A stretch of DNA of 64,000 bases from Escherichia phage AV109, in sequence record OR352939.1. One strand, written 5' to 3'. A model generated the notes under the pieces. It saw nothing but the letters and a program-made list of their open reading frames with translations, was not told where the DNA came from and made no database searches. Shown here one piece after another: positions 5,501-50,353 of this stretch; positions within the stretch are counted from its first letter, which is position 1, and each line of letters starts with the position of its first letter. Both the position numbers and the translations under genes were made by a program.

Positions 5501-7185
5501 TAGATTCGTTCCCATTGATGAGTGATATCGCCACCGATTGGACGATAGGAAACACCAGTTTCTTTATCAGTTAGTACCCATTTACCAGGATTTTTTGTAA
5601 TCAGAGTAGCCGTTACAGGTTCTGCTACGTCATAACTAATAGAGCCGTCCTGAAGTACACGGCCCATGTTACGTAATTGCTTAGTCAGAAGTTCCATACC
5701 TTTATAATATGCGGCTACCGCTTTAAGTGGATTATTCTTGAAATAACCACCTAATGCAATCCAGATAATTGCCACAGCCAAATGATGATATTCATTAAAC
5801 GAACTCAGCTTTCCATATTTGTAAACTAATGGATTGATGTTAATAGTCACATTACAAGTTGTTTCATCAATAGTAAACTGTCCCCAGGTCGGATTAGCAT
5901 TGAATTCATCATAACCTGAAACAGCATAAAGCACTTTAGCTTCATCATACAATTTTGGCCCGTAAATCTTGGTTTCACCAAAATATCCACGAGGGTCGAT
6001 AAATTTGACTTCGCCGTTATCAGTAATCATAGTATTACTGAAGTTCGGGTCACCATGAATAACAGAGTACTGTCCCTGAGAACGGTTATGATAACGAATA
6101 AGGTGTTCTAAAGCTTGTTTCAGCATTGGCTTCAGACGTCCAATCTTAGTGTAGTTCACATGTGTGATTTTACCAAATGAATCAATCAACGGTTGAATGC
6201 TTTCACAACGATCAATAACTTTCGTATAGAATTCTTTAGTGAAATCACGACGAACAGTTTCAGGACTTACAAAATAAGTGTCTGTGCTGAATTTCAGTGC
6301 ATCTAAAATTGCATCAACAATTTGTGGACGAGCAAGACTTGATTTGGATTTAATATATTCAAATGCCGGCTTACCTTTAATGCGTTCCATTTCAAAGTTA
6401 TTTTCATTAACAGAAACTAACTGAGGAACTGAATCTGATTTCACTTTAAGATACCATGAAATCTCATCTTTCTGAAGAGCTCGACCTTGTTCAGTTAATG
6501 CGAATTTAGTTACAGTTTCTTCACCAATTTCAACTGCATTAAAACTACGATTAAGTTCACGAACTTCATGAGCCTTTTCAAGTTTAGGCATATCACCAAG
6601 GTCGATGATATTCATAAGCTCTGATTTATTGAATGCGCCGCTGTAAAGGAATTCTACGAAATCACGTCCTTTGCAGTATTCATGAATTTCCTCATCGGTA
6701 GAACCCATGTAGAATTCCCAGTCTTTGAACTGGTAAATTCCCACAACATTACCACCTGTTGAACCTACGTTAGTGATATTTTCACCATCGAAATTATATC
6801 GACATTCGTCACCCTTAACATAGATTGCGTTAACATTCCAAGACCATGAACCAAAATCAGGAATAATATCACACCAGTTAACAATTACGTTATGGCCGTC
6901 TAAATCTTTGTGTAATTTAGCAAGAGCATAAGCAGAACCATACGCTTCATCGACTGTACGAATAGTCACATTGAACCCTTCTTGCTCACAATAAGCTCGA
7001 ACAGTTTCAGCAAATTTTGAATGAACTACTACAATAATTTCATCTGCGCCAAGGTCAGAATAAATTGTATACAAATTGCTCAGAATAGTGTCTTGTTTAT
7101 AGTTAACAAGCACCTTAGGAATATGGTGAGTAATTGGATATAAACGAGTTGCCAATCCAGCACCAAGAATAACAGCTTTTTTCAT
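5500..7185 (-). CDS. bifunctional sugar-1-phosphate nucleotidyltransferase (N-terminal) / sugar kinase (C-terminal, APH/choline-kinase fold)
   Basis: 561 aa; N-terminal ILGAGLATRL nucleotidyltransferase glycine loop; C-terminal HGDPNFSNTMI...FIDPRGYFG kinase catalytic loop; SD GAGGA upstream. Confidence 0.8.
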   Translation of the reverse strand: MKKAVILGAGLATRLYPITHHIPKVLVNYKQDTILSNLYTIYSDLGADEIIVVVHSKFAETVRAYCEQEGFNVTIRTVDEAYGSAYALAKLHKDLDGHNVIVNWCDIIPDFGSWSWNVNAIYVKGDECRYNFDGENITNVGSTGGNVVGIYQFKDWEFYMGSTDEEIHEYCKGRDFVEFLYSGAFNKSELMNIIDLGDMPKLEKAHEVRELNRSFNAVEIGEETVTKFALTEQGRALQKDEISWYLKVKSDSVPQLVSVNENNFEMERIKGKPAFEYIKSKSSLARPQIVDAILDALKFSTDTYFVSPETVRRDFTKEFYTKVIDRCESIQPLIDSFGKITHVNYTKIGRLKPMLKQALEHLIRYHNRSQGQYSVIHGDPNFSNTMITDNGEVKFIDPRGYFGETKIYGPKLYDEAKVLYAVSGYDEFNANPTWGQFTIDETTCNVTININPLVYKYGKLSSFNEYHHLAVAIIWIALGGYFKNNPLKAVAAYYKGMELLTKQLRNMGRVLQDGSISYDVAEPVTATLITKNPGKWVLTDKETGVSYRPIGGDITHQWERI

Positions 7186-7226
7186 GTTGTGGTCCTCATT
7201 GGTAAGTAGGAGTATTGTACACTATT

Positions 7227-7370
7227 CTAGTTAAAGCATTCATACTTTGCTTGTAGTCCAATCATAATCCATCCAATTACAAGTGTTGGAATCATTACCG
7301 GAGCCGTTAAGCTCCAGTAGATAGTCATGACAAGCATCAATAGTAAAAGTCCTATTGTTATTGCTTTCAT
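7227..7370 (-). CDS. small hydrophobic membrane protein (47 aa), not in ORF track
   Basis: MKAITIGLLLLMLVMTIYWSLTAPVMIPTLVIGWIMIGLQAKYECFN; ATGA overlap with SIS gene stop; SD GAGG 8 nt upstream. Confidence 0.45.
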   Translation of the reverse strand: MKAITIGLLLLMLVMTIYWSLTAPVMIPTLVIGWIMIGLQAKYECFN

Positions 7371-8002
7371 TGTTCGCCTCGTAACATGGCACCTAGTGCA
7401 CCGCCTGGATGGAACTTAAGGAAATCATTAGAGGTAAATCCACGTTCAGACGAAAGGTTGATAGCAAACGTATCGATAAGCGCTAACAACAATGTAGTGG
7501 ACATTGTCGGAGCTAAAGAGTTCTCGTCAACTTCTACCGCGATACCAGTACAGAACGTATAATCAAAAAGAGCTTCGTATTCTTGTGGAATGTCAGGGTT
7601 ACAATGTAACAGAATCTGTTTAACCTGAGGACGAATCATACGAAGATGTTTAGCAACACCTATCATTTCTTCAGTCTTACCAGAACGACTAATATGAATC
7701 AACACGTCATTAGGTGCAATAAATCCTGCGTCACCATGAGAATAATGCCCAGTGTTCAAATACATGCTAGGAATACCTAGTGAAGCAAATGTCTCGGAAG
7801 CTTTAGTTGCGATATTAGCATTCTTACCAACACCTGTAATAATTACCCGGCTTTCATAATTACTAAGTCCAGGGCGTCGAAGAGTTTCTAGAATAGCATT
7901 ATAACGAGCAGGGTTTTGACTAATTACTTTGGCCATAGCGGCCAAAGAAGAAGCTTGTTTTATGATTGCGTCAATAGCGATAGTAATAGGAGTAGTTTTC
8001 AT
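7367..8002 (-). CDS. SIS-domain sugar-phosphate isomerase, arabinose-5-phosphate isomerase (KdsD/KpsF) type without CBS domains
   Basis: 211 aa; GVGKNANIATK, SRSGKTEE, LAPTMSTT and HPGGALG motifs characteristic of API SIS domains. Confidence 0.8.
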   Translation of the reverse strand: MKTTPITIAIDAIIKQASSLAAMAKVISQNPARYNAILETLRRPGLSNYESRVIITGVGKNANIATKASETFASLGIPSMYLNTGHYSHGDAGFIAPNDVLIHISRSGKTEEMIGVAKHLRMIRPQVKQILLHCNPDIPQEYEALFDYTFCTGIAVEVDENSLAPTMSTTLLLALIDTFAINLSSERGFTSNDFLKFHPGGALGAMLRGEQ

Positions 8003-8042
8003 ATTTCTCTCATTTAATTAGTTTACCGTCCATGGCATTATA

Positions 8043-10754
8043 TCAAAAATCGAACATATCGAACAGAGATGCTTTCTTCTCGTAATCGAGTTTCGCTGCT
8101 GATGTGAATCCTTCAAGTGGTTTAATAAATGTCTTCTCAAGGAGAACAGTGTAGTCCATCCAATGAAGTACGTCGTCTTTAATTAAATCTGTGATTTCAG
8201 TACCAGAAGGCCATGCGATACATTTATCACCGAATGGGTTTCCTTCACGTAAAGGCAGAACATATACTTTTTCACCTTCTACAACTTGTGGTGCATCAAT
8301 ATTACCTTTGATAGCTCGGTTATATGTCAGAATTCCACGAATATGAAACGGGCATTTAGGACCAGGGAATCCACCGACATCATATTTAGCAATGTTATTC
8401 GCAGAAGATACCGACGCGATGCTAATATAATTCAATTGACGGAATTCTTTTTCAAACTCTTTAAAATATTCTTGTAATGATTCTTCACCTTCTTGAAGCA
8501 TACGACGAATACATTCTTTAAGAGCTTTCTGTACTGCTTTAGGAGTCGAAGATTTCTGAGTCTCTAGACCCATGATTTTGAGTTTAGGCTCAGCATAACG
8601 AGTGCCTTCCATATCCCACACGTTTAATGCATAACGTTTCTTACCAGTCCAGAATCCACCAATACCTTTAGAACCGAGCGGAGGGCCAGCAATAGCTTCT
8701 CGGTCCATGAACATTAAGTGTTGTTTATTGTTCATGTATTCACACATTTCACGGAAACCTCTATCAATAGCTGGTTCCATACGTTCACGTGCAAACTTAT
8801 CTAAGAAGTCTACCCAATGGTTTGTATCACGGAATTTAGATTCACCAACCTTATCGATAATTTTATCAGCAGATACGTAAATAGAGTCTGTATCACCATA
8901 AAGAACGAAAGCTTCACCTTCTGTACCACAAACTTCATTCAGATATTCATTAACTTTACGTTCAATCCACTGTAAAGCCATTTGACCAAATGTTGTGATT
9001 GCAGTTGCATTACGCAAATCATAATAACGGAACCAAACGTTTCCAAGTGCACCATAAAGTGAGTTGATAAGCAATTTACGGTTAATTTGGGCAGTCATAC
9101 CCGCAACTTCAGTACGTTGAGCTCTAAACAACATTTCATTAAGAGATTTAGCAGACAACTTTTTAATCTTTTCTTTAATCTCATCGCTGAAGTCGAAACG
9201 ATAATCAACATCTAATGGTTCGTCAACAGAAAGATTAGGATTATGCAATGCCTCTTTAATTATTTCACCATTACGTTGAGCTGCAAGCATGTAACCTTTA
9301 TGTTCTTTACGTTGATTAAAGACCTTAGTGATTTCAGTTGGAACTACACCATCACGGTCTTTATAATACATCATGCCGTTAGGAGAACAACTGTACACAT
9401 CTGAAGGACGTTCAGCGATTGCGTTAATATAATCATGTAATGGAGCTACTTTAAACGTTCCTGCTATTGTTTCTGGGCTAATATTCACTTGGCGAATGAT
9501 GCTTGGATACAGAGATGTAAGGTCGAAACTCATTACATATTTGTATCGATTTGGAATAGGTTCCTTAACAAAAGCGCCAGGATAAGGTTGAACCGGGTGA
9601 GAACGACCTTGTGGAATCACCTTGTTCTGCTCTTTAAGGCTATTAAAAATAATAGCATCCCAAGTTTTAATTGGACTGAACACAGATTGAATCTGAATTT
9701 TAGCATAATAACCCATGTCCAAGCTCAAGTTGATGAACTGACGCTTAGAATCAATTTGCAATACACGATACACGTCGATAATGTTATAAGAAATATATCG
9801 TTGGTGATTGCTTTCACGAAGCTTAGAAATAGGGCCGTCATATTTCAGTTTACCAACGTTCAATTCAAATTCTGAAATGTAATCCAGAGAATACGACGGT
9901 TGATTGGTAAAAGAGAATTTTTTGTAAAGGTCAATGTAATCAAGAACAGAGATACCGAACAATGTAATGATTTCACGAGAACCATACATGTTTTCGATAA
10001 CTTTAACACGAGTTTTACGATGTGGCGATAAACGTTTCGCAGTAGATTCGCCAAAAATATTCTTGATTCGGTTATACACATATGGAATATCAAATGACTC
10101 AACGTTCCATCCAGTCAAAATGACAGGAGTTTTCTGTTGCCAGAAGTTGAGATATTCCATCAACAATTCTTTTTCGTTATCGAACGGCATATAAATGATT
10201 TTATCGATAATTTCAGATGGAACTTCATCACCGCCTTGTTCTTGAAGCTTAGCAGCGATTTCAATAGACCATTCTTCTACATTACCATACGGAGAATTCA
10301 ATAGATCAAATACGTAGAACCTGTCGTCAATTGAGTCATAATGGGTGATAGCATCAATAGGATGCTTTGCTTGTGCCGGCTCAGGGAACCCGTCCGGAGA
10401 TGTTACTTCGATGTCGAAGTTAGCCACACGAATTTTTGTATGGTCGTATTTGATTTCATAGTTATAAGTGTCAGACAAATACGCCAATTTGAAATCGTCC
10501 ATGCCAAGTGCTTCAAGTCCGATATCTTCCATGCGTTTAATCCATTGGGAGGCATCACGCATATTAGCGAACAACTTACGAGTACACGGCTTACCGTAGA
10601 TATCGAAATATTTCGTAGCCTGACTTTCCGGACAATGAGCAAACAGTGATGGTTTATATTCTACTTCACGAGTACGTTCACGGCCATTAGAATCGATGTA
10701 ACGTTCAAAAATTGAATCACCAATCTGTTCAACCGTTAAGTAAAATTCTTTCAT
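8043..10754 (-). CDS. 43: DNA polymerase (family B), RB69-type gp43
   Basis: 903 aa; sequence from MKEFYLTVEQIGDSIFERYIDSNGRERTREVEYKPSLFAHCPESQATKYFDIYGKPCTRKLF onward matches the RB69 polymerase as I recall it. Confidence 0.98.
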   Translation of the reverse strand: MKEFYLTVEQIGDSIFERYIDSNGRERTREVEYKPSLFAHCPESQATKYFDIYGKPCTRKLFANMRDASQWIKRMEDIGLEALGMDDFKLAYLSDTYNYEIKYDHTKIRVANFDIEVTSPDGFPEPAQAKHPIDAITHYDSIDDRFYVFDLLNSPYGNVEEWSIEIAAKLQEQGGDEVPSEIIDKIIYMPFDNEKELLMEYLNFWQQKTPVILTGWNVESFDIPYVYNRIKNIFGESTAKRLSPHRKTRVKVIENMYGSREIITLFGISVLDYIDLYKKFSFTNQPSYSLDYISEFELNVGKLKYDGPISKLRESNHQRYISYNIIDVYRVLQIDSKRQFINLSLDMGYYAKIQIQSVFSPIKTWDAIIFNSLKEQNKVIPQGRSHPVQPYPGAFVKEPIPNRYKYVMSFDLTSLYPSIIRQVNISPETIAGTFKVAPLHDYINAIAERPSDVYSCSPNGMMYYKDRDGVVPTEITKVFNQRKEHKGYMLAAQRNGEIIKEALHNPNLSVDEPLDVDYRFDFSDEIKEKIKKLSAKSLNEMLFRAQRTEVAGMTAQINRKLLINSLYGALGNVWFRYYDLRNATAITTFGQMALQWIERKVNEYLNEVCGTEGEAFVLYGDTDSIYVSADKIIDKVGESKFRDTNHWVDFLDKFARERMEPAIDRGFREMCEYMNNKQHLMFMDREAIAGPPLGSKGIGGFWTGKKRYALNVWDMEGTRYAEPKLKIMGLETQKSSTPKAVQKALKECIRRMLQEGEESLQEYFKEFEKEFRQLNYISIASVSSANNIAKYDVGGFPGPKCPFHIRGILTYNRAIKGNIDAPQVVEGEKVYVLPLREGNPFGDKCIAWPSGTEITDLIKDDVLHWMDYTVLLEKTFIKPLEGFTSAAKLDYEKKASLFDMFDF

Positions 10755-44922: not shown

Positions 44923-45072
44923 TTAATGTATCTGTTCACGATAATACCTGCTGACTGGTCCGATTTTAAATTCTTGGCAAATATGTTTCACTAAGTATGA
45001 TGGACATCCTGTCCAATCTACTGAATAGTATGAAATACCTTCATTGCCGTCGTCTATATTATTGTTAATCAT
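44923..45072 (-). CDS. possible small ORF (49 aa), not in ORF track
   Basis: ATG overlaps stop of upstream gene (TAATG); MINNNIDDGNEGISYYSVDWTGCPSYLVKHICQEFKIGPVSRYYREQIH. Confidence 0.35.
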   Translation of the reverse strand: MINNNIDDGNEGISYYSVDWTGCPSYLVKHICQEFKIGPVSRYYREQIH

Positions 45073-45758
45073 TACCAGCCTTCCATAGGGAATTCCAGAT
45101 AAACTTGAGCATTGACACGAATTTCATTGGTAATCTTTTTAACTCGGTCTGTATTACGAGATACACGTCCGAACCAACGCCATCCGTTACTAATTGCACG
45201 AGAACCAGTGTGCCATGTTTGCCAATCAAATTGAAGAAGAGTACGGTCTGGAGCTTCCCATTTCTCTAGTTCGCCTTTTTCGATTTTTTCGAGGACTTCT
45301 TTGTGCCACTGGCGATAGATAAGTTCGCCATCAGGAATCTGACTGAACTCTGCAGTTCCTGTTGCAAAATGAGTAGGACACACATCAGCGTTAACAAGAC
45401 CAAGAATATGTTCAGACAAATAGCGAGGATTGTCATAGTCAGGTTGTCCTGCAGTAATAAAGTGTTGACCAACTGGAATATCAGGGCGTGGAACATCGTC
45501 ATGGTGATATCCAGGAATAGCAGGGTACCAGCCAGGCATCAGCATGTGGACTCGTGAATCAAATACAACATCCGAGTCTTTCCAATCGTCAGGGAGATTT
45601 TGGATAAAGCTACGAGTAATTGGACCGCCATTATCAAAAGCAAAATTCAAATCGCAATTAAAGAACATAGGCTCGTTTTTAATCTGGCCATTTTTAATCG
45701 CATGAGCAAAACCACCTACTGCACGAGCTTGACTATTAAACACTTTAGAACTATTCAT
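45072..45758 (-). CDS. hypothetical protein (228 aa)
   Basis: ORF; 3-nt gap to upstream ORF. Confidence 0.5.
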   Translation of the reverse strand: MNSSKVFNSQARAVGGFAHAIKNGQIKNEPMFFNCDLNFAFDNGGPITRSFIQNLPDDWKDSDVVFDSRVHMLMPGWYPAIPGYHHDDVPRPDIPVGQHFITAGQPDYDNPRYLSEHILGLVNADVCPTHFATGTAEFSQIPDGELIYRQWHKEVLEKIEKGELEKWEAPDRTLLQFDWQTWHTGSRAISNGWRWFGRVSRNTDRVKKITNEIRVNAQVYLEFPMEGW

Positions 45759-45759
45759 A

Positions 45760-46065
45760 TTATTTTCCTCGGCATTCTTTAATGAAATTTTCTAGATTGG
45801 TAGATTCAATAGCTTTTTTACGAGCTTCTGCATGTTCTTCTTCGGACAATTTACATTTATAATTGACCCAGACATTATGGTCGAAACTAGTCGTGGCATA
45901 TAATAACAATGCTCCAACGAATAGCAAAAACGGTGATAAGAATACAAAACCAGGAACACCATCCATACTGTAAGCCTTTTGTAATACTGCAACAGAAAGA
46001 GCTGCGTAAAAAGGTGATGCAAATATTGTTAAAAGACCAATTCGGTTGGTTTCGCCTAATTTCAT
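45760..46065 (-). CDS. membrane protein (101 aa)
   Basis: Hydrophobic segments; SD GAGGAG. Confidence 0.5.
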   Translation of the reverse strand: MKLGETNRIGLLTIFASPFYAALSVAVLQKAYSMDGVPGFVFLSPFLLFVGALLLYATTSFDHNVWVNYKCKLSEEEHAEARKKAIESTNLENFIKECRGK

Positions 46066-46093
46066 AATATTCTCCTCATGTTTTAATAGGACT

Positions 46094-46123
46094 ACTATAA
46101 CATAATCCTATAATTATGTAAAC
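46094..46123 (-). promoter_or_regulatory. T4-type early promoter with ataggacta palindrome
   Basis: Minus strand GTTTAC, 18 nt, TATAGT. Confidence 0.5.
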
Positions 46124-46135
46124 AGTTTTGCGAAA

Positions 46136-47092
46136 TTATTTGAAAGGTTTTACCATATGAAAATTTTCTTTAAACCGTTTGATGTAATCATTTTTGCCGA
46201 GCTTATGATACATAGCCACTACTTCATAATAGTTCTCGTATGCGTACTCACGGAACCAACCGGAGGTGATGCTTGTGCAGACTTTTTCTAATGCCATCAT
46301 GAAACTGGCTTCAGGGTTAATTTTAAAGTCATTAGGAATTTGAGAACGTTCTAATGCTAGTACACATGATTCTTCATATACACCAGCCAGTTTAATCATT
46401 TCGGGTAACGATTCGAACTTCTCGCGTGAGGTCATGACTTCAGAACCGTCTTTCATATAAAATGTATACGCTGGACGGTCTGTTAGTGCAATGGCTTCAT
46501 GAATAGTATCATGGTCATATGTATAGATGTCATCTTTAAAGAACGCACTTTTAGAAGTGTCAAGAACTGGGTGAGCATAGTTCAAGGTTTCTTTCTGGCG
46601 TTTCAGCATAATTTCAGTAAGTTCATCGTTCAGTGTAACACCTTTACCACGAAGATACTGAATATGGTTCATAGTCTTTAAAAAGAATGGATTATTTTTC
46701 TTGAAACGATGAGACATCTTAATTGCAAGACCTATCTCAGGAGTTGCCCAGTAAAACCCGTTCAAACGGTCTTTAGACAAATTTTTCTTGGCGTATTTTA
46801 AAAGGTCATAAGAAGACGTGAAATCTTCAGGAGTGAGTTCACCGACTAATTCACGGACATTAGTGATTGCCGGAACAATATATGCTTCAAAATGAGTTTC
46901 GCGTCCATTATGGAAGCATTTGAAAACTTGGACATCAGGGTTATCTTGGTGAACATATACACCCATCATTTGATTTTTGAATGCATTCCAAGAACCTTGG
47001 TCCGCAATAAAGTCCCAATCGCTATTTTTGATAGCGCTAGAATCAATAAGACCATGATAGTGAAGTGCACGAGAACCAATAACTAACATCAT
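46136..47092 (-). CDS. hypothetical protein with N-terminal nucleotidyltransferase-like signature (318 aa)
   Basis: VIGSRALHYHGLIDSSAIKNSDWDFI fits the GS...DxD pattern; weak. Confidence 0.4.
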   Translation of the reverse strand: MMLVIGSRALHYHGLIDSSAIKNSDWDFIADQGSWNAFKNQMMGVYVHQDNPDVQVFKCFHNGRETHFEAYIVPAITNVRELVGELTPEDFTSSYDLLKYAKKNLSKDRLNGFYWATPEIGLAIKMSHRFKKNNPFFLKTMNHIQYLRGKGVTLNDELTEIMLKRQKETLNYAHPVLDTSKSAFFKDDIYTYDHDTIHEAIALTDRPAYTFYMKDGSEVMTSREKFESLPEMIKLAGVYEESCVLALERSQIPNDFKINPEASFMMALEKVCTSITSGWFREYAYENYYEVVAMYHKLGKNDYIKRFKENFHMVKPFK

Positions 47093-47120
47093 AATATTTT
47101 CCTCGGATTAATTCATTAAC

Positions 47121-47360
47121 TTAAATTTCACGACATGCGATATTATATTCGTCCCAGAGGTCATCGTGTGAAGCCTCTACCAATGGAACGATTGTACCGT
47201 TTATGTCTTCATTATAAGGGCAAATTGTACAGTGCGCATCTTCGAATCGGATGCCTTTGTGTTCAGATTTTTTATAACGCATATCGAATATCTTTGCAAA
47301 CTTTTCACGAGTAATGGTTTTAGCAACCACTTTGGTTCCGATACTTTCGTAATAAATCAT
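47121..47360 (-). CDS. hypothetical protein (about 79 aa)
   Basis: Second ATG with SD GGAG is the likely start; track ORF starts at 47372. Confidence 0.4.
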   Translation of the reverse strand: MIYYESIGTKVVAKTITREKFAKIFDMRYKKSEHKGIRFEDAHCTICPYNEDINGTIVPLVEASHDDLWDEYNIACREI

Positions 47361-47388
47361 TGTGGACTCCATTTGTTTTGATAGGACT

Positions 47389-47418
47389 ACTGTAACATAG
47401 CCCTATCTTGTTGTAAAC
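47389..47418 (-). promoter_or_regulatory. T4-type early promoter
   Basis: Minus strand GTTTAC, 18 nt, TACAGT; ataggactactgtaacatagccctat core. Confidence 0.45.
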
Positions 47419-47422
47419 TGTT

Positions 47423-47620
47423 TTAGCAAGAATAACTAGATGATACCCAGCCTTGAACAGTGATACTATTGTGGGATAATGAGATCGCGTCCTGGAGATT
47501 CAGACCTGCGTTATCTTCAATCCATAATGTAACTTCTTCGCGTTCTTCTGTTGCAATTTGGAACAGGTTTTCCAGAGCAGCTACTGCCGTACGTACAGCA
47601 CAATCTAATTCACGAGACAT
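47423..47620 (-). CDS. small protein, member 1 of a tandem paralog trio with C-terminal GxWVxSSxxC tail
   Basis: 65 aa ending VQGWVSSSYSC. Confidence 0.5.
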   Translation of the reverse strand: MSRELDCAVRTAVAALENLFQIATEEREEVTLWIEDNAGLNLQDAISLSHNSITVQGWVSSSYSC

Positions 47621-47629
47621 ATGGTTTCC

Positions 47630-47902
47630 TTAGCAAGTGTGAGAAGATGCGACCCAACCGCCATCTTCAAGGCTCAGGTTGTAGTCGTATTGGTAAACGT
47701 CAGCCCATTCAGCCTGGCCGTTTTTTGTACAACGTTCAAGATCGGCTTTAAGATGTCCGGGTGAATGATAGGTTCCACCCATACCATAAGCTGGATACAA
47801 GTCAAATGTTGTGTTTTGTTTATCAGCAATTTCTTTGGCAGCCTCAATAGCTGCATAGATTTTTGCTACAGCTTCAGCCAGTTCGGTTTGTTCTTTAGAC
47901 AT
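47630..47902 (-). CDS. small protein, member 2 of the tandem trio
   Basis: 90 aa ending DGGWVASSHTC; stop followed by AAGGAAACC SD of next gene. Confidence 0.5.
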   Translation of the reverse strand: MSKEQTELAEAVAKIYAAIEAAKEIADKQNTTFDLYPAYGMGGTYHSPGHLKADLERCTKNGQAEWADVYQYDYNLSLEDGGWVASSHTC

Positions 47903-47911
47903 AACTATTCC

Positions 47912-48223
47912 TTAGCACAACGCAGAAGACGAAACCCAAGCACCATCTTTCTCTTCTACCCTTGATTTATCCCAAGAAATACTAATATATGATTCGCCAT
48001 CAATAGAAGTCGCCGGGTTTTTCTCTACTGTAAGACCTTCACTTTCCAGCCATTCAATAGTATTTGCGCATAAATCTGAAGAACACCTCATCGGAAACCG
48101 GCAAGATTTTTCACCTTTAGATGCTGCATCGTACATCTTTTCCAAAATACGCTTTTGCACGTTTTTAAAAATAGTTTCAGCAGATTCTTCAGATTTTTTA
48201 TTCAGTTCAGTGTAAAGACTCAT
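47912..48223 (-). CDS. small protein, member 3 of the tandem trio
   Basis: 103 aa ending DGAWVSSSALC; SD AGAGGAAAA. Confidence 0.5.
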   Translation of the reverse strand: MSLYTELNKKSEESAETIFKNVQKRILEKMYDAASKGEKSCRFPMRCSSDLCANTIEWLESEGLTVEKNPATSIDGESYISISWDKSRVEEKDGAWVSSSALC

Positions 48224-48251
48224 AACATTTTCCTCTATGGTTGATAAGTCT

Positions 48252-48280
48252 ATAGTATCATGTCCTTAGAAGAAGTAAAC
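48252..48280 (-). promoter_or_regulatory. T4-type early promoter
   Basis: Minus strand GTTTAC, 17 nt, TACTAT, SD AGAGGAAAA, ATG 48223. Confidence 0.5.
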
Positions 48281-48312
48281 ATCTTTATGAAATATTTTTA
48301 TGCCCTAGATAC

Positions 48313-48340
48313 CAAAAGGCCCCAACCATAAGGAAGGGGC
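48313..48340 (-). terminator. rho-independent terminator, copy 3
   Basis: ggccccaacc-ataa-ggaaggggc hairpin with minus-strand U-run, downstream of the 48347 gene. Confidence 0.5.
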
Positions 48341-48346
48341 ATTCTA

Positions 48347-48811
48347 TTATTTAATTTGTTTAGCAGACCAGATACGGTCTTTAATAAGTTTTTGGATATC
48401 TTCAACATACTCAAGGCTATGAGCGTGAGGATTATCTTTGAAGCTATGTGCTCGTGCCAGTTTCTGTCCTTCTGTTTTGATTACTAAAAGCTCTTTAAGA
48501 ATTGCTTCATACTTAGAAATAATTCCTTTGGCGATATTTTTTTCTTGAGCTGCTTTAGGGTCCACTTTTGGCGCAGGTGCTTTACCTGTAGCTTTCTGGA
48601 ACAATTCACCTGATGCAGCTAGGCTTTTAAAAACTCGGCTAACAGTATTAGCATTAGTAAAACCTTCGGCTTTAAAATCTCTAATAAAACGGAAACGTTC
48701 TTCATCAGAGGCGTCTTTGTAAGAATATTTACCTGCTTGAATTGCTGCAATCGCAGCGGCTTTTACATCTGAACTAGATTGTTCAGTCAAAAATTCAGCG
48801 TATGATTTCAT
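48347..48811 (-). CDS. internal-protein-like, leader MKSYAEFLTEQ
   Basis: 154 aa; Ala/Lys-rich. Confidence 0.55.
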   Translation of the reverse strand: MKSYAEFLTEQSSSDVKAAAIAAIQAGKYSYKDASDEERFRFIRDFKAEGFTNANTVSRVFKSLAASGELFQKATGKAPAPKVDPKAAQEKNIAKGIISKYEAILKELLVIKTEGQKLARAHSFKDNPHAHSLEYVEDIQKLIKDRIWSAKQIK

Positions 48812-48854
48812 GTTGCTTTTCCTAAGTTAATTAACTTATCTATTTATTATTATG

Positions 48855-48883
48855 CCAAAAAGCCCCGACCTTTCGGAAGGGGC
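48855..48883 (-). terminator. rho-independent terminator, copy 4, downstream of the tRNA region
   Basis: gccccgacc-tttc-ggaaggggc hairpin with minus-strand U-run. Confidence 0.55.
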
Positions 48884-48894
48884 TAAGCCTTGCG

Positions 48895-49010
48895 GCAACC
48901 TTGTCGGGGTTCCACCTGCTAAGGCAAGTGTTTGTACGAAACGCCGGGATTCGAACCAAGATAAAGGAGTTAACAGCTCCCAGTAATAACCTTTATACGA
49001 TGCACCATTT
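48895..49010 (-). other. tRNA-like remnant or small stable RNA candidate adjacent to the tRNA
   Basis: Minus strand has canonical T-loop GGTTCGAATCC and an anticodon-like stem-loop GGGAG-CTGTTAA-CTCCT, but I could not fold a clean acceptor/D/T cloverleaf. Confidence 0.25.
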
Positions 49011-49013
49011 GTT

Positions 49014-49088
49014 TGGTGGCCCTGGCTGGTTTCGATCCAGCTACCTATCAGTTATGAGCTGACAGCTCTCCCATTGAGCTACAGGGCC
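49014..49088 (-). tRNA. tRNA with CAT anticodon (Met or lysidine-type Ile)
   Basis: Hand-folded cloverleaf: 7-bp acceptor GGCCCTG/CAGGGCC, D-stem GCTC/GAGC, anticodon stem GTCAG/CTGAT with loop CTCATAA, T-stem GCTGG/CCAGC, encoded CCA. Confidence 0.85.
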
Positions 49089-50020: not shown

Positions 50021-50057
50021 TTTATTTCTCCATTTACTCATTTGTTTTGATAGGACT

Positions 50058-50087
50058 ACTATAACATATCCCTATAGGCTTGTATAC
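50058..50087 (-). promoter_or_regulatory. early promoter variant (GTATAC -35, TATAGT -10)
   Basis: ataggactactataacatatccctat core. Confidence 0.45.
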
Positions 50088-50089
50088 CT

Positions 50090-50353
50090 TTATTTCAAAT
50101 ATATTGCGTATTTTTTATAGCCACCAGGCTCGTGTCGAAGACCTTTATCATTCGCAAAACGTTGAATGTTATTGAACTGATTTTCATCAAGTTCGGATGT
50201 GTCAAATACGAAAAAGTTTCGTTTGTTACCAAGCGTGATATGCGGAGTTAAGTCAATATTATACAAATTAAGAATATCAGCAATAACCTGATTGACCGCT
50301 TTGTTAATTTTCACACCAGATGATTCTGAGATGAATTCGTTGAAAGTTTTCAT
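50090..50353 (-). CDS. internal-protein-like, leader MKTFNEFISES
   Basis: Start at internal Met of track ORF 50090..50365. Confidence 0.55.
   Translation of the reverse strand: MKTFNEFISESSGVKINKAVNQVIADILNLYNIDLTPHITLGNKRNFFVFDTSELDENQFNNIQRFANDKGLRHEPGGYKKYAIYLK

Follow-up and report, generated by a model that had tools for sequence, protein, structure and literature searches.

Small acidic phage proteins with a shared W-x-S-S-x-x-C ending, paired with a predicted MenT-like nucleotidyltransferase: two family members and one deletion chimera in a Mosigvirus genome

Why should three consecutive small genes of a T4-like phage end in nearly the same residues? The question is raised by positions 47,423 to 48,223 of a 64,000-nucleotide (nt) stretch of Escherichia phage AV109 (OR352939.1), and we refer to that whole stretch as the window. 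Over this region the sequence matches Escherichia phage AV114 (OR352944.1) at 100% identity. AV114 is a T4-like Mosigvirus (Tevenvirinae) from pig waste, and all three open reading frames (ORFs) are hypothetical coding sequences in its record. An initial annotation described them as small paralogs in tandem sharing a C-terminal GxWVxSSxxC tail, which it found consistent with a docking, processing, lipidation or metal-binding signal on variable effectors. We find that the genes of 65 and 90 amino acids (aa) are tandem whole-length paralogs of a large phage-only family, and that the 103-aa gene is a recent in-frame deletion fusion at a microhomology. The broader interest lies outside those positions, in the conserved pairing of this family with an enzyme gene at 46136-47092 whose predicted fold is MenT-like. 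The genes at issue are:

47423-47620, minus strand: 65-aa ORF with C-terminus VQGWVSSSYSC; short subtype; ortholog of RB69 ORF136c; PHROG 4882
47630-47902, minus strand: 90-aa ORF with C-terminus DGGWVASSHTC; YGMGGTY subtype; ortholog of RB69 ORF137c; C-terminal part of PHROG 899
47912-48223, minus strand: 103-aa chimeric ORF with C-terminus DGAWVSSSALC
46136-47092, minus strand: enzyme gene of the ~310-aa type, 318 aa here; Pfam DUF7277 (PF23942) and DUF7275 (PF23940); RB69 ORF134c

The common ending is genuine. When the 64-kb window was scanned in six frames, the pattern W[VIL][AST]SSxxC-stop appeared at the ends of the three ORFs and nowhere else, and WVxSS had no further occurrence. With the window's own amino-acid frequencies, 1.5e-5 such endings are expected per window by chance, and 100 shuffles gave none. 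The ORF coordinates, the scan and the shuffles thus bear out three consecutive small genes with a GxWVxSSxxC ending. Codon usage differs between the copies, as had also been claimed: the Val codon of the tail is GTA, GTC or GTT, and the Ser-position codons are TCA/TCT/AGT, GCA/TCT/TCT and TCG/TCT/TCT.

The ending belongs to a family that reaches well beyond this genome. The 65-aa gene has matches in 251 phage records and the 90-aa gene in 282; the 65-aa protein matches phrog_4882 with an E value of 8e-37, and the 90-aa protein matches the C-terminal part of phrog_899 with 4e-19. Tandem genes ending in W-x-[S/A/G]-S-S-x-x-C-stop occur in JS98 (Dhakavirus), in Klebsiella, Enterobacter (Kanagawavirus), Pectobacterium (Mosugukvirus) and Edwardsiella phages, and likewise in a 366-kb Erwinia jumbo phage. 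Dhakavirus-type phages (JS98 locus at ~6828-8294; IMG/VR loci L018-L045) have four or five members in tandem. A word-indexed search of 5.8 billion proteins returned 88 relatives, none of them named. An exhaustive search of 1.84 billion cluster representatives with a hidden Markov model returned 635 at E <= 1e-3, which puts the family at no fewer than 635 clusters at 50% identity. Nearly all of these representatives are 70-140 aa long, with a match that extends to the last residue, and the motif ends the protein in 126 of 137 newly listed representatives, while 7 more have one residue after it. The proposal of a common signal depended on the tail recurring in homologs, and it is present in related and in very distant phages.

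The family resemblance is not confined to the tail. The three subtypes align over their whole length, with an N-terminal helix (A..A..IAD) common to all and a YGxGGTYYP hairpin (the YG-x-GG-TYY-x-P-G segment) common to the two long subtypes (90 and 101 aa). W83, S86, S87 and C90 are invariant in 62 aligned sequences. The proteins are acidic: both genuine members in the window (65 and 90 aa) have a net charge of -7, with isoelectric points (pI) of 4.2 and 4.7, and the family mean is -8 to -9. There is some variation on the theme, including a subfamily of ~70-75 aa that ends in W-[YQH]-P-S-S-C and has an internal ...SSSCYGE... motif, distant members that repeat the tail unit (for example RWESSSEGWESSSEGWVSSSSQC in P0227), and a few members with extra N-terminal domains. 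Scans of the small proteins with Pfam, NCBIfam and PADLOC gave nothing meaningful, and neither single-sequence nor profile searches matched any PDB sequence. A search of 185,579 bacterial and archaeal species (one genome each) found no relative, although it was seeded with the YGMGGTY peptide only and its sensitivity is limited to that seed.

The 103-, 90- and 65-aa genes lie 9 nt apart and TAAGGA follows each Cys codon. We considered a constraint at the DNA level, with the stop codon and the Shine-Dalgarno sequence TAAGGA of the next gene producing the common ending. The diversity of codons and stops excludes this. Among 157 distinct tail DNAs from other phages, all six Ser codons are used at the two invariant Ser positions, together with TGC and TGT and all three stops; therefore selection acts on the protein and not on the overlapping ribosome-binding site. 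Conservation at the protein level, as first claimed, stands on these tails, but the 103-aa copy arose by recent recombination and is not an independent third example.

The history of the 103-aa gene can be read from its relatives. In tblastn searches, most Mosigvirus homologs of its product aligned only over residues 1-91 or 1-97, at sites ~3 kb away from the counterparts of the 65- and 90-aa genes. Over residues 1-91 the protein has 92% identity to RB69 ORF146c, whose ending differs, and the ORF fails to show whole-length homology to the tailed family. With blastn, window positions 46001-47947 are colinear with RB69 as far as the tail of ORF138c, while 47963-48235 match the 5' part of ORF146c, which is ~2.8 kb off in RB69. 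In phages JK36 and JN02 the arrangement is intact: upstream lies an ORF146c-family gene (167 aa, or 101 aa where truncated), followed by e.8 to e.3-type genes and then by a genuine trio of 101, 90 and 65 aa with the motif at each end. Codons 1 to ~94 of the chimera come from the unrelated 167-aa gene family (JK36_00144; truncated in RB69 as ORF146c; PHROG 6869/18312), which elsewhere ends without the tail, and the true third paralog of 101 aa supplied the final ~9. The DNA of the 103-aa gene tracks the JK36 167-aa gene up to ...GAAAGATGGTG, and from GGTGCTTGGGTT... to the stop it tracks the JK36 101-aa gene, to which it is identical over the final 32 nt compared. The join has two parts:

47933-47944, minus strand: deletion junction, an 11/12-nt microhomology GGTG(A/C)TTGGGTT with the crossover within GGTG (47941-47944)
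47912-47932, minus strand: tail remnant of the lost third paralog, with the SSSALC codons and the stop, identical to the end of the JK36 101-aa gene

The microhomology encodes G-D/A-W-V in both parents (..DGDWV.. in the 167-aa protein, ..EGAWV.. in the 101-aa paralog). Of 147 matching phage records, just two have the intact junction, AV114 and its sibling AV115. Compared with RB69 and JK36, these two lack ~2.8 kb, positions 7770-10608 of the RB69 locus, with the homologs of e.3, e.4 (annotated as a sulfurtransferase in JK36), e.5, e.6, frd.3 and ORF145c, which are dispensable for AV114/AV115 because they are deleted there. RB69 has lost the third paralog in another way. Its copy (locus 7735-8041) is frameshifted into ORF139c and ORF138c, with the tail mutated to WVSSPALC, and is a pseudogene annotated as two genes. 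The third paralog is therefore dispensable in this lineage.

Because the ~2.8-kb deletion joined an unrelated gene to the tail of a paralog, the divergent N-terminal part of the third gene is an accident, and the chimera is most likely a by-product of the deletion rather than a functional tagged effector. This removes the ground for variable effectors with divergent N-termini, since the 65-aa, 90-aa and true 101-aa paralogs align from end to end and the odd N-terminus is a fusion product. Lipidation has no support either, as neither a signal peptide nor a lipobox is present and the proteins look cytoplasmic and are acidic. Metal binding is likewise unsupported; with only one invariant Cys, we rejected a mononuclear metal site. 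We also rejected a role as capsid-targeted internal proteins. The capsid-targeting sequence of T4 internal proteins is N-terminal and of the MKxYxEFxxE type, and the three ORFs start with MSRELDC, MSKEQTE and MSLYTEL.

A structural model of the 90-aa protein suggests where the tail sits. The AlphaFold2 (AF2) model has a predicted local distance difference test score (pLDDT) of 90, with helices at 3-29, 48-60 and 64-73, strands at 32-38, 41-46 and 81-85 (GWVAS), and then SHTC. The architecture of the family is a long N-terminal helix (27 residues), a beta-hairpin, two short helices, a C-terminal strand and then the W-x-S-S-x-x-C end. As modelled, the G-x-W-V-x part of the tail is a beta-strand within the fold and no free appendage. 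This strand pairs with the hairpin in the genuine members, a hairpin that the chimera lacks. No structural relative of the 90-aa model was found, and Foldseek against viral models returned only uncharacterised members of the same family.

What then does the tail serve? The tailed genes keep company with one enzyme gene. In the window it lies 331 nt downstream of the 65-aa gene on the same strand, and in every context that we examined the tailed genes are beside a ~310-aa DUF7277 + DUF7275 protein. Seen from the enzyme, 70 of 80 IMG/VR loci (3,642 six-frame ORFs of at least 35 aa) had one to four ORFs with the strict motif. All 141 of these are upstream of the enzyme gene on its strand, with none downstream and none antisense. 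Looser endings (W-x-P-S-S-C, W-x-x-S-S-x-x-C) were found on 56 more ORFs, again all on the strand of the enzyme gene. Counting these, four of the ten "negative" loci (L043, L061, L084 and L096) gain tailed genes. Seen from the small proteins, the enzyme gene is just downstream in 32 of 35 loci, and the other three are contigs that end right after the small genes. Across loci, one to five family members adjoin the enzyme gene and often overlap or abut it. They share its strand at all loci examined and precede it at nearly all. The pairing is kept in T4-like genera, the 366-kb Erwinia jumbo phage, Phapecoctavirus (three tailed genes), a Pseudomonas siphovirus and Acinetobacter phage Ac42. In Xanthomonas phage BUDD the order is inverted, with four tailed genes immediately downstream of the enzyme gene, and the adjacency is kept.

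The association is one-sided. The CC31, L055/56/58/88 and L089 lineages have the enzyme without tailed genes nearby, and no locus with small proteins only was seen among those examined, a pattern that fits small proteins dependent on the enzyme. The enzyme itself was found in at least 733 phage records and 2,131 protein clusters, with T4-like, rV5-like and jumbo myoviruses and Pseudomonas siphoviruses among its carriers. Streptomyces and Gordonia phages have the DUF7275 half only and no tailed genes. In one of them, Gordonia phage Yvonnetastic, the DUF7275-only homolog is <2 kb from a tRNA gene cluster, as in T4-like phages; such proximity in a distant actinophage is a weak hint at a tRNA-related role for the enzyme. 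Separately, three loci (L011, L014 and L097; metagenomic phages, Phapecoctavirus) share a conserved block with a SIR2-family gene ~5 kb downstream of the enzyme gene and a metallophosphatase ~3 kb upstream, possibly a wider functional cluster.

The enzyme can be placed by its predicted fold. The AF2 model (pLDDT 91.8) has as its nearest solved structures, with scores in brackets, the MenT1 toxin (10.0), ANT(2'')-Ia (8.5), TglT/MenT3 (8.5), TM1012 (7.6), MenT4 (7.6), JHP933 (7.1) and LnuA (7.0). On this model it is a DUF1814/AbiEii-like nucleotidyltransferase by fold and not by sequence: there was no match to Pfam DUF1814, PADLOC or NCBIfam, and none to PDB sequences with a single sequence or a profile. 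Judged from the alignment of 46 diverse enzyme sequences, the catalytic signature is intact, as G6-S7, D25-x-D27 and E69, the signature of Pol-beta nucleotidyltransferases, are invariant. K125 and H128 are invariant too, R129 is present in 44 of the 46, and the helical domain has a dense set of invariant His, Asp and Glu. The same sequences show no conserved Ser/Thr phospho-acceptor two residues before the first catalytic Asp, where position 23 is N, C, D, P or V; position 24 is Ser in 19 of 46. The family is near neutral, with a mean pI of 6.4.

MenT toxins add nucleotides to tRNA 3' ends, and the antitoxin MenA1 blocks MenT1 and induces autophosphorylation of T39, two residues before the catalytic D41 (PMC10435456, PMC11375011). 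More generally, relatives of the enzyme use hydroxyls on tRNA or on antibiotics as acceptors for nucleoside monophosphate (NMP), and MenT1 phosphorylates itself on Thr39 (PMC10435456, PMC11375011). MenAT and AbiE are known as a DUF1814 nucleotidyltransferase toxin with a small or AbiEi-type antitoxin, and the phage module resembles this layout of a nucleotidyltransferase plus a small partner. However, the module is borne by lytic phages, its enzyme matches DUF7277/DUF7275 and not Pfam DUF1814, and that enzyme has a large C-terminal domain, rich in His and Asp and extremely conserved. The divergent partner paralogs, as many as five, share the invariant C-terminal W-SS-C motif, genomes with the enzyme only occur, and the partner fold is unrelated to MenA1, MenA3 and AbiEi. 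MenT1 differs further in the phospho-acceptor at -2 of its catalytic Asp, which the phage enzymes do not conserve. ANT(2'')-Ia (AadB) and LnuA act on antibiotics and have neither protein partners nor a DUF7275 domain. In MntA-HepT, a minimal nucleotidyltransferase poly-adenylylates a Tyr of its partner toxin. With a Pol-beta nucleotidyltransferase beside a small partner that is modified on a side-chain hydroxyl, it is the closest precedent for the small proteins as substrates.

The module works most like these nucleotidyltransferase-plus-small-partner systems (MenAT, AbiE, MntA-HepT) yet belongs to none of them, because the enzyme fails on sequence membership and on the phospho-acceptor position, the partner fold and motif have no known relative, and the module is phage-borne and multi-copy. 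The entries that the proteins do match (PHROG 4882, PHROG 899, DUF7277/DUF7275) are all of "unknown function". Both the enzyme and the small family carry only hypothetical or DUF annotation, and the tail motif and the gene linkage are undescribed in the PHROG and Pfam entries. Within the library covered, a literature search on DUF7275/DUF7277, these PHROGs, the motif, phage DUF1814/MenT-like enzymes and small acidic phage proteins with a C-terminal cysteine found nothing relevant.

Our tentative preference is that the small acidic proteins are clients of the adjacent nucleotidyltransferase and that the tail engages it as an acceptor or pseudo-substrate. At the end of the chain the tail would present Trp as an anchor, with Ser, Ser and Cys as three nucleophilic side chains, and it would enter the active-site cleft. 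There it might either accept NMP or phosphate, or gate or retarget the enzyme in the role of a pseudo-substrate; differing specificities could come from the paralogs' variable acidic bodies. The tail is thus plausibly a docking or processing element, with the adjacent nucleotidyltransferase as the candidate partner. A more specific form is a real though less likely possibility: a widespread phage-specific protein-modification system in which the Ser-Ser-x-x-Cys end of diversified small acidic carriers would covalently receive a nucleotide or phosphate from the MenT-like enzyme, or would be primed by it for nucleotide addition.

Several observations count against the small proteins as clients. 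Individual paralogs are dispensable, with the third one frameshifted in RB69 and deleted in AV114/AV115. The seven representatives with an extra residue after Cys mean that a free Cys carboxylate is not obligatory, and the subfamily ending in W-x-P-S-S-C has no two-residue spacer. W83 and its strand may be purely structural. The trio in AV114 is set apart from the enzyme gene by an 83-aa gene and an early-promoter-like cassette, and the synteny could reflect nothing beyond co-regulation.

The small proteins might instead be antitoxin-like inhibitors, which we consider fairly unlikely. The enzyme would then act on tRNA 3' ends, either as a toxin of the MenT kind or as an effector of host shutoff. 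Its acidic partners would neutralise it or time its action by covering the electropositive cleft, mainly with the long N-terminal helix in the manner of MenA1, and the tail would be secondary or structural. Several observations are congenial to this: the enzyme fold is nearest to MenT1, the small genes lie upstream of the enzyme gene and often touch it, the proteins are strongly acidic with a 27-residue N-terminal helix, and the module adjoins phage tRNA genes. MenA1 is itself a 68-aa long-helix antitoxin that blocks the MenT1 cavity (PMC10435456). Four points lead us to favour the small proteins as clients: a single enzyme has many paralogs, it is the tail rather than the helix that holds the invariant residues, the orphans go the wrong way for a toxin-antitoxin pair (genomes with the enzyme alone are the reverse of what is expected), and relatives of the enzyme transfer to hydroxyls.

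It is unlikely that the enzyme is a mere neighbour and the small proteins are independent early effectors, either acidic nucleic-acid mimics or binders of host factors (anti-defence or takeover), with the tail binding a host target or the Cys bridging subunits. The proteins are small and very acidic, come from an early region, have diversified in tandem and can be lost one by one, as is typical of phage anti-defence genes, and the locus is in the hyperplastic tRNA / internal-protein / 57B region of T4-like phages. In T4 the known anti-defence genes 57B (Acb1) and ipI are found in this region. However, the tailed genes stay next to the enzyme gene in unrelated phage groups whose neighbourhoods otherwise differ, including the inverted order of BUDD, and co-regulation alone does not predict this. 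The proteins also show no structural similarity to Ocr, ArdA, Gam or other mimics and no PADLOC matches. In a comparison with the acidic DNA-mimic anti-restriction proteins Ocr, ArdA and Arn, the two genuine window members had a net charge of -7 each, and no solved mimic matched in structure.

Very unlikely is a literal portable C-terminal tag on unrelated effector domains, with the 103-aa gene as its example. The AV114/AV115 fusion is in frame and retains W-V-S-S-S-A-L-C, and the few members with extra N-terminal domains or repeated WxSSS units (P0227) could be read in the same way. However, the fusion is in only two of the 147 related genomes with tail DNA equal to the parental gene, and the crossover microhomology happens to encode G-x-W-V, so there is no sign of selection. 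The donor family is tailless elsewhere, the chimera has no hairpin partner for the W-strand, and in all other cases the body is homologous.

Highly improbable is a RiPP-type (ribosomally synthesized and post-translationally modified peptide) ring or processing site at the terminal S-x-x-C, with the enzyme activating Ser for elimination: a C-terminal S-x-x-C does form (amino-vinyl-)lanthionine rings in epidermin-type peptides, Ser at -3, Ser at -4 and Cys at 0 are invariant, and the adjacent enzyme may, by its modelled fold, be able to activate hydroxyls, but these are confidently folded domains of 60-150 aa in AF2 models rather than leader-core peptides, the neighbours scanned have no dehydratase, cyclase or HFCD/LanD-type decarboxylase domain, the 7 of 137 members with a residue after Cys and the S-S-C subfamily without a spacer do not fit, and RiPP-type elimination chemistry is not known for Pol-beta nucleotidyltransferases.

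The surrounding genes give some context for the pair. Transcription at the locus runs from high to low coordinates, in the order tRNA-Met, a 154-aa ORF, an early-promoter-like sequence, the 103-, 90- and 65-aa genes, a 65-nt cassette, an 83-aa gene and the enzyme gene. The remaining features are:

49014-49088: tRNA-Met, called by ARAGORN
48347-48811, minus strand: 154-aa ORF that starts MKSYAEFLTE, with a weak match to PHROG 7857 "internal virion protein" (E 0.0069, residues 1-43)
48252-48280, minus strand: putative T4-type early promoter (GTTTAC at 48280-48275, 17-nt spacer, TACTAT at 48257-48252), found by eye and absent from the consensus-scan output
47370-47434, minus strand: 65-nt early-promoter-like cassette (GTTTACA-N17-TACAGT) between the 65-aa and 83-aa genes
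47121-47372, minus strand: 83-aa gene between the tailed genes and the enzyme gene; ortholog of RB69 ORF135c; PHROG 3723
45072-45758 and 45760-46065, minus strand: genes downstream of the enzyme gene for a 228-aa protein and a 101-aa hydrophobic protein; RB69 ORF132c/133c; widely syntenic

The trio and the enzyme gene are probably early, in adjacent or read-through transcription units. The 83-aa gene is confined to some T4-like genera, and the pair has no such gene in between in PM2, in Kaldavass or at the metagenomic loci. Copies of the cassette at 46075-46139, 47370-47434 and 50039-50103 all have GTTTACA-N17-TA.AGT on the minus strand, and similar copies are found at several intergenic sites in RB69. 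These cassettes may serve as recombination sites for gene shuffling. For the two genes downstream of the enzyme gene we found no Pfam domain; a homolog of the 228-aa protein is called a 2OG-Fe(II) oxygenase in one Klebsiella phage record.

The T4 internal protein IPI starts MKTYQEFIAE, a capsid-targeting sequence that the N-terminus of the 154-aa ORF resembles, and the ORF probably encodes a polymorphic internal head protein. It is flanked by two copies (48309-48340 and 48852-48883, 81% identical) of a 32-nt GC-rich hairpin-like repeat (AAAAGGCCCC..GGAAGGGGC), with a terminator-like call at 48878-48863; the repeats could be terminators or boundaries of a mobile cassette. A tRNA-Asn is annotated in GenBank at ~48936-49007. 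ARAGORN calls only the tRNA-Met in this stretch, and the tRNA-Asn gene may be degenerate or mis-annotated. In relatives the locus has between 2 and 10 tRNAs.

The 103-aa gene is a clean case of two genes fused in frame by a microhomology-mediated deletion, in a hyperplastic part of a T4-like genome, and it warns against taking shared termini for portable tags. The pairing of the small family with the enzyme offers a hypothesis that can be tested directly for a large part of the phage "dark matter". If the small proteins are indeed modified carriers, the system would make protein-nucleotide conjugates with an early role in infection, such as one against host defences that target tRNA or signal through nucleotides, and the module would be a new class of enzyme and tagged client with a new recognition motif. 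The pairing could also show how phages use or counter tRNA-end-modifying chemistry, which is so far known only from bacterial toxin-antitoxin and abortive-infection systems.

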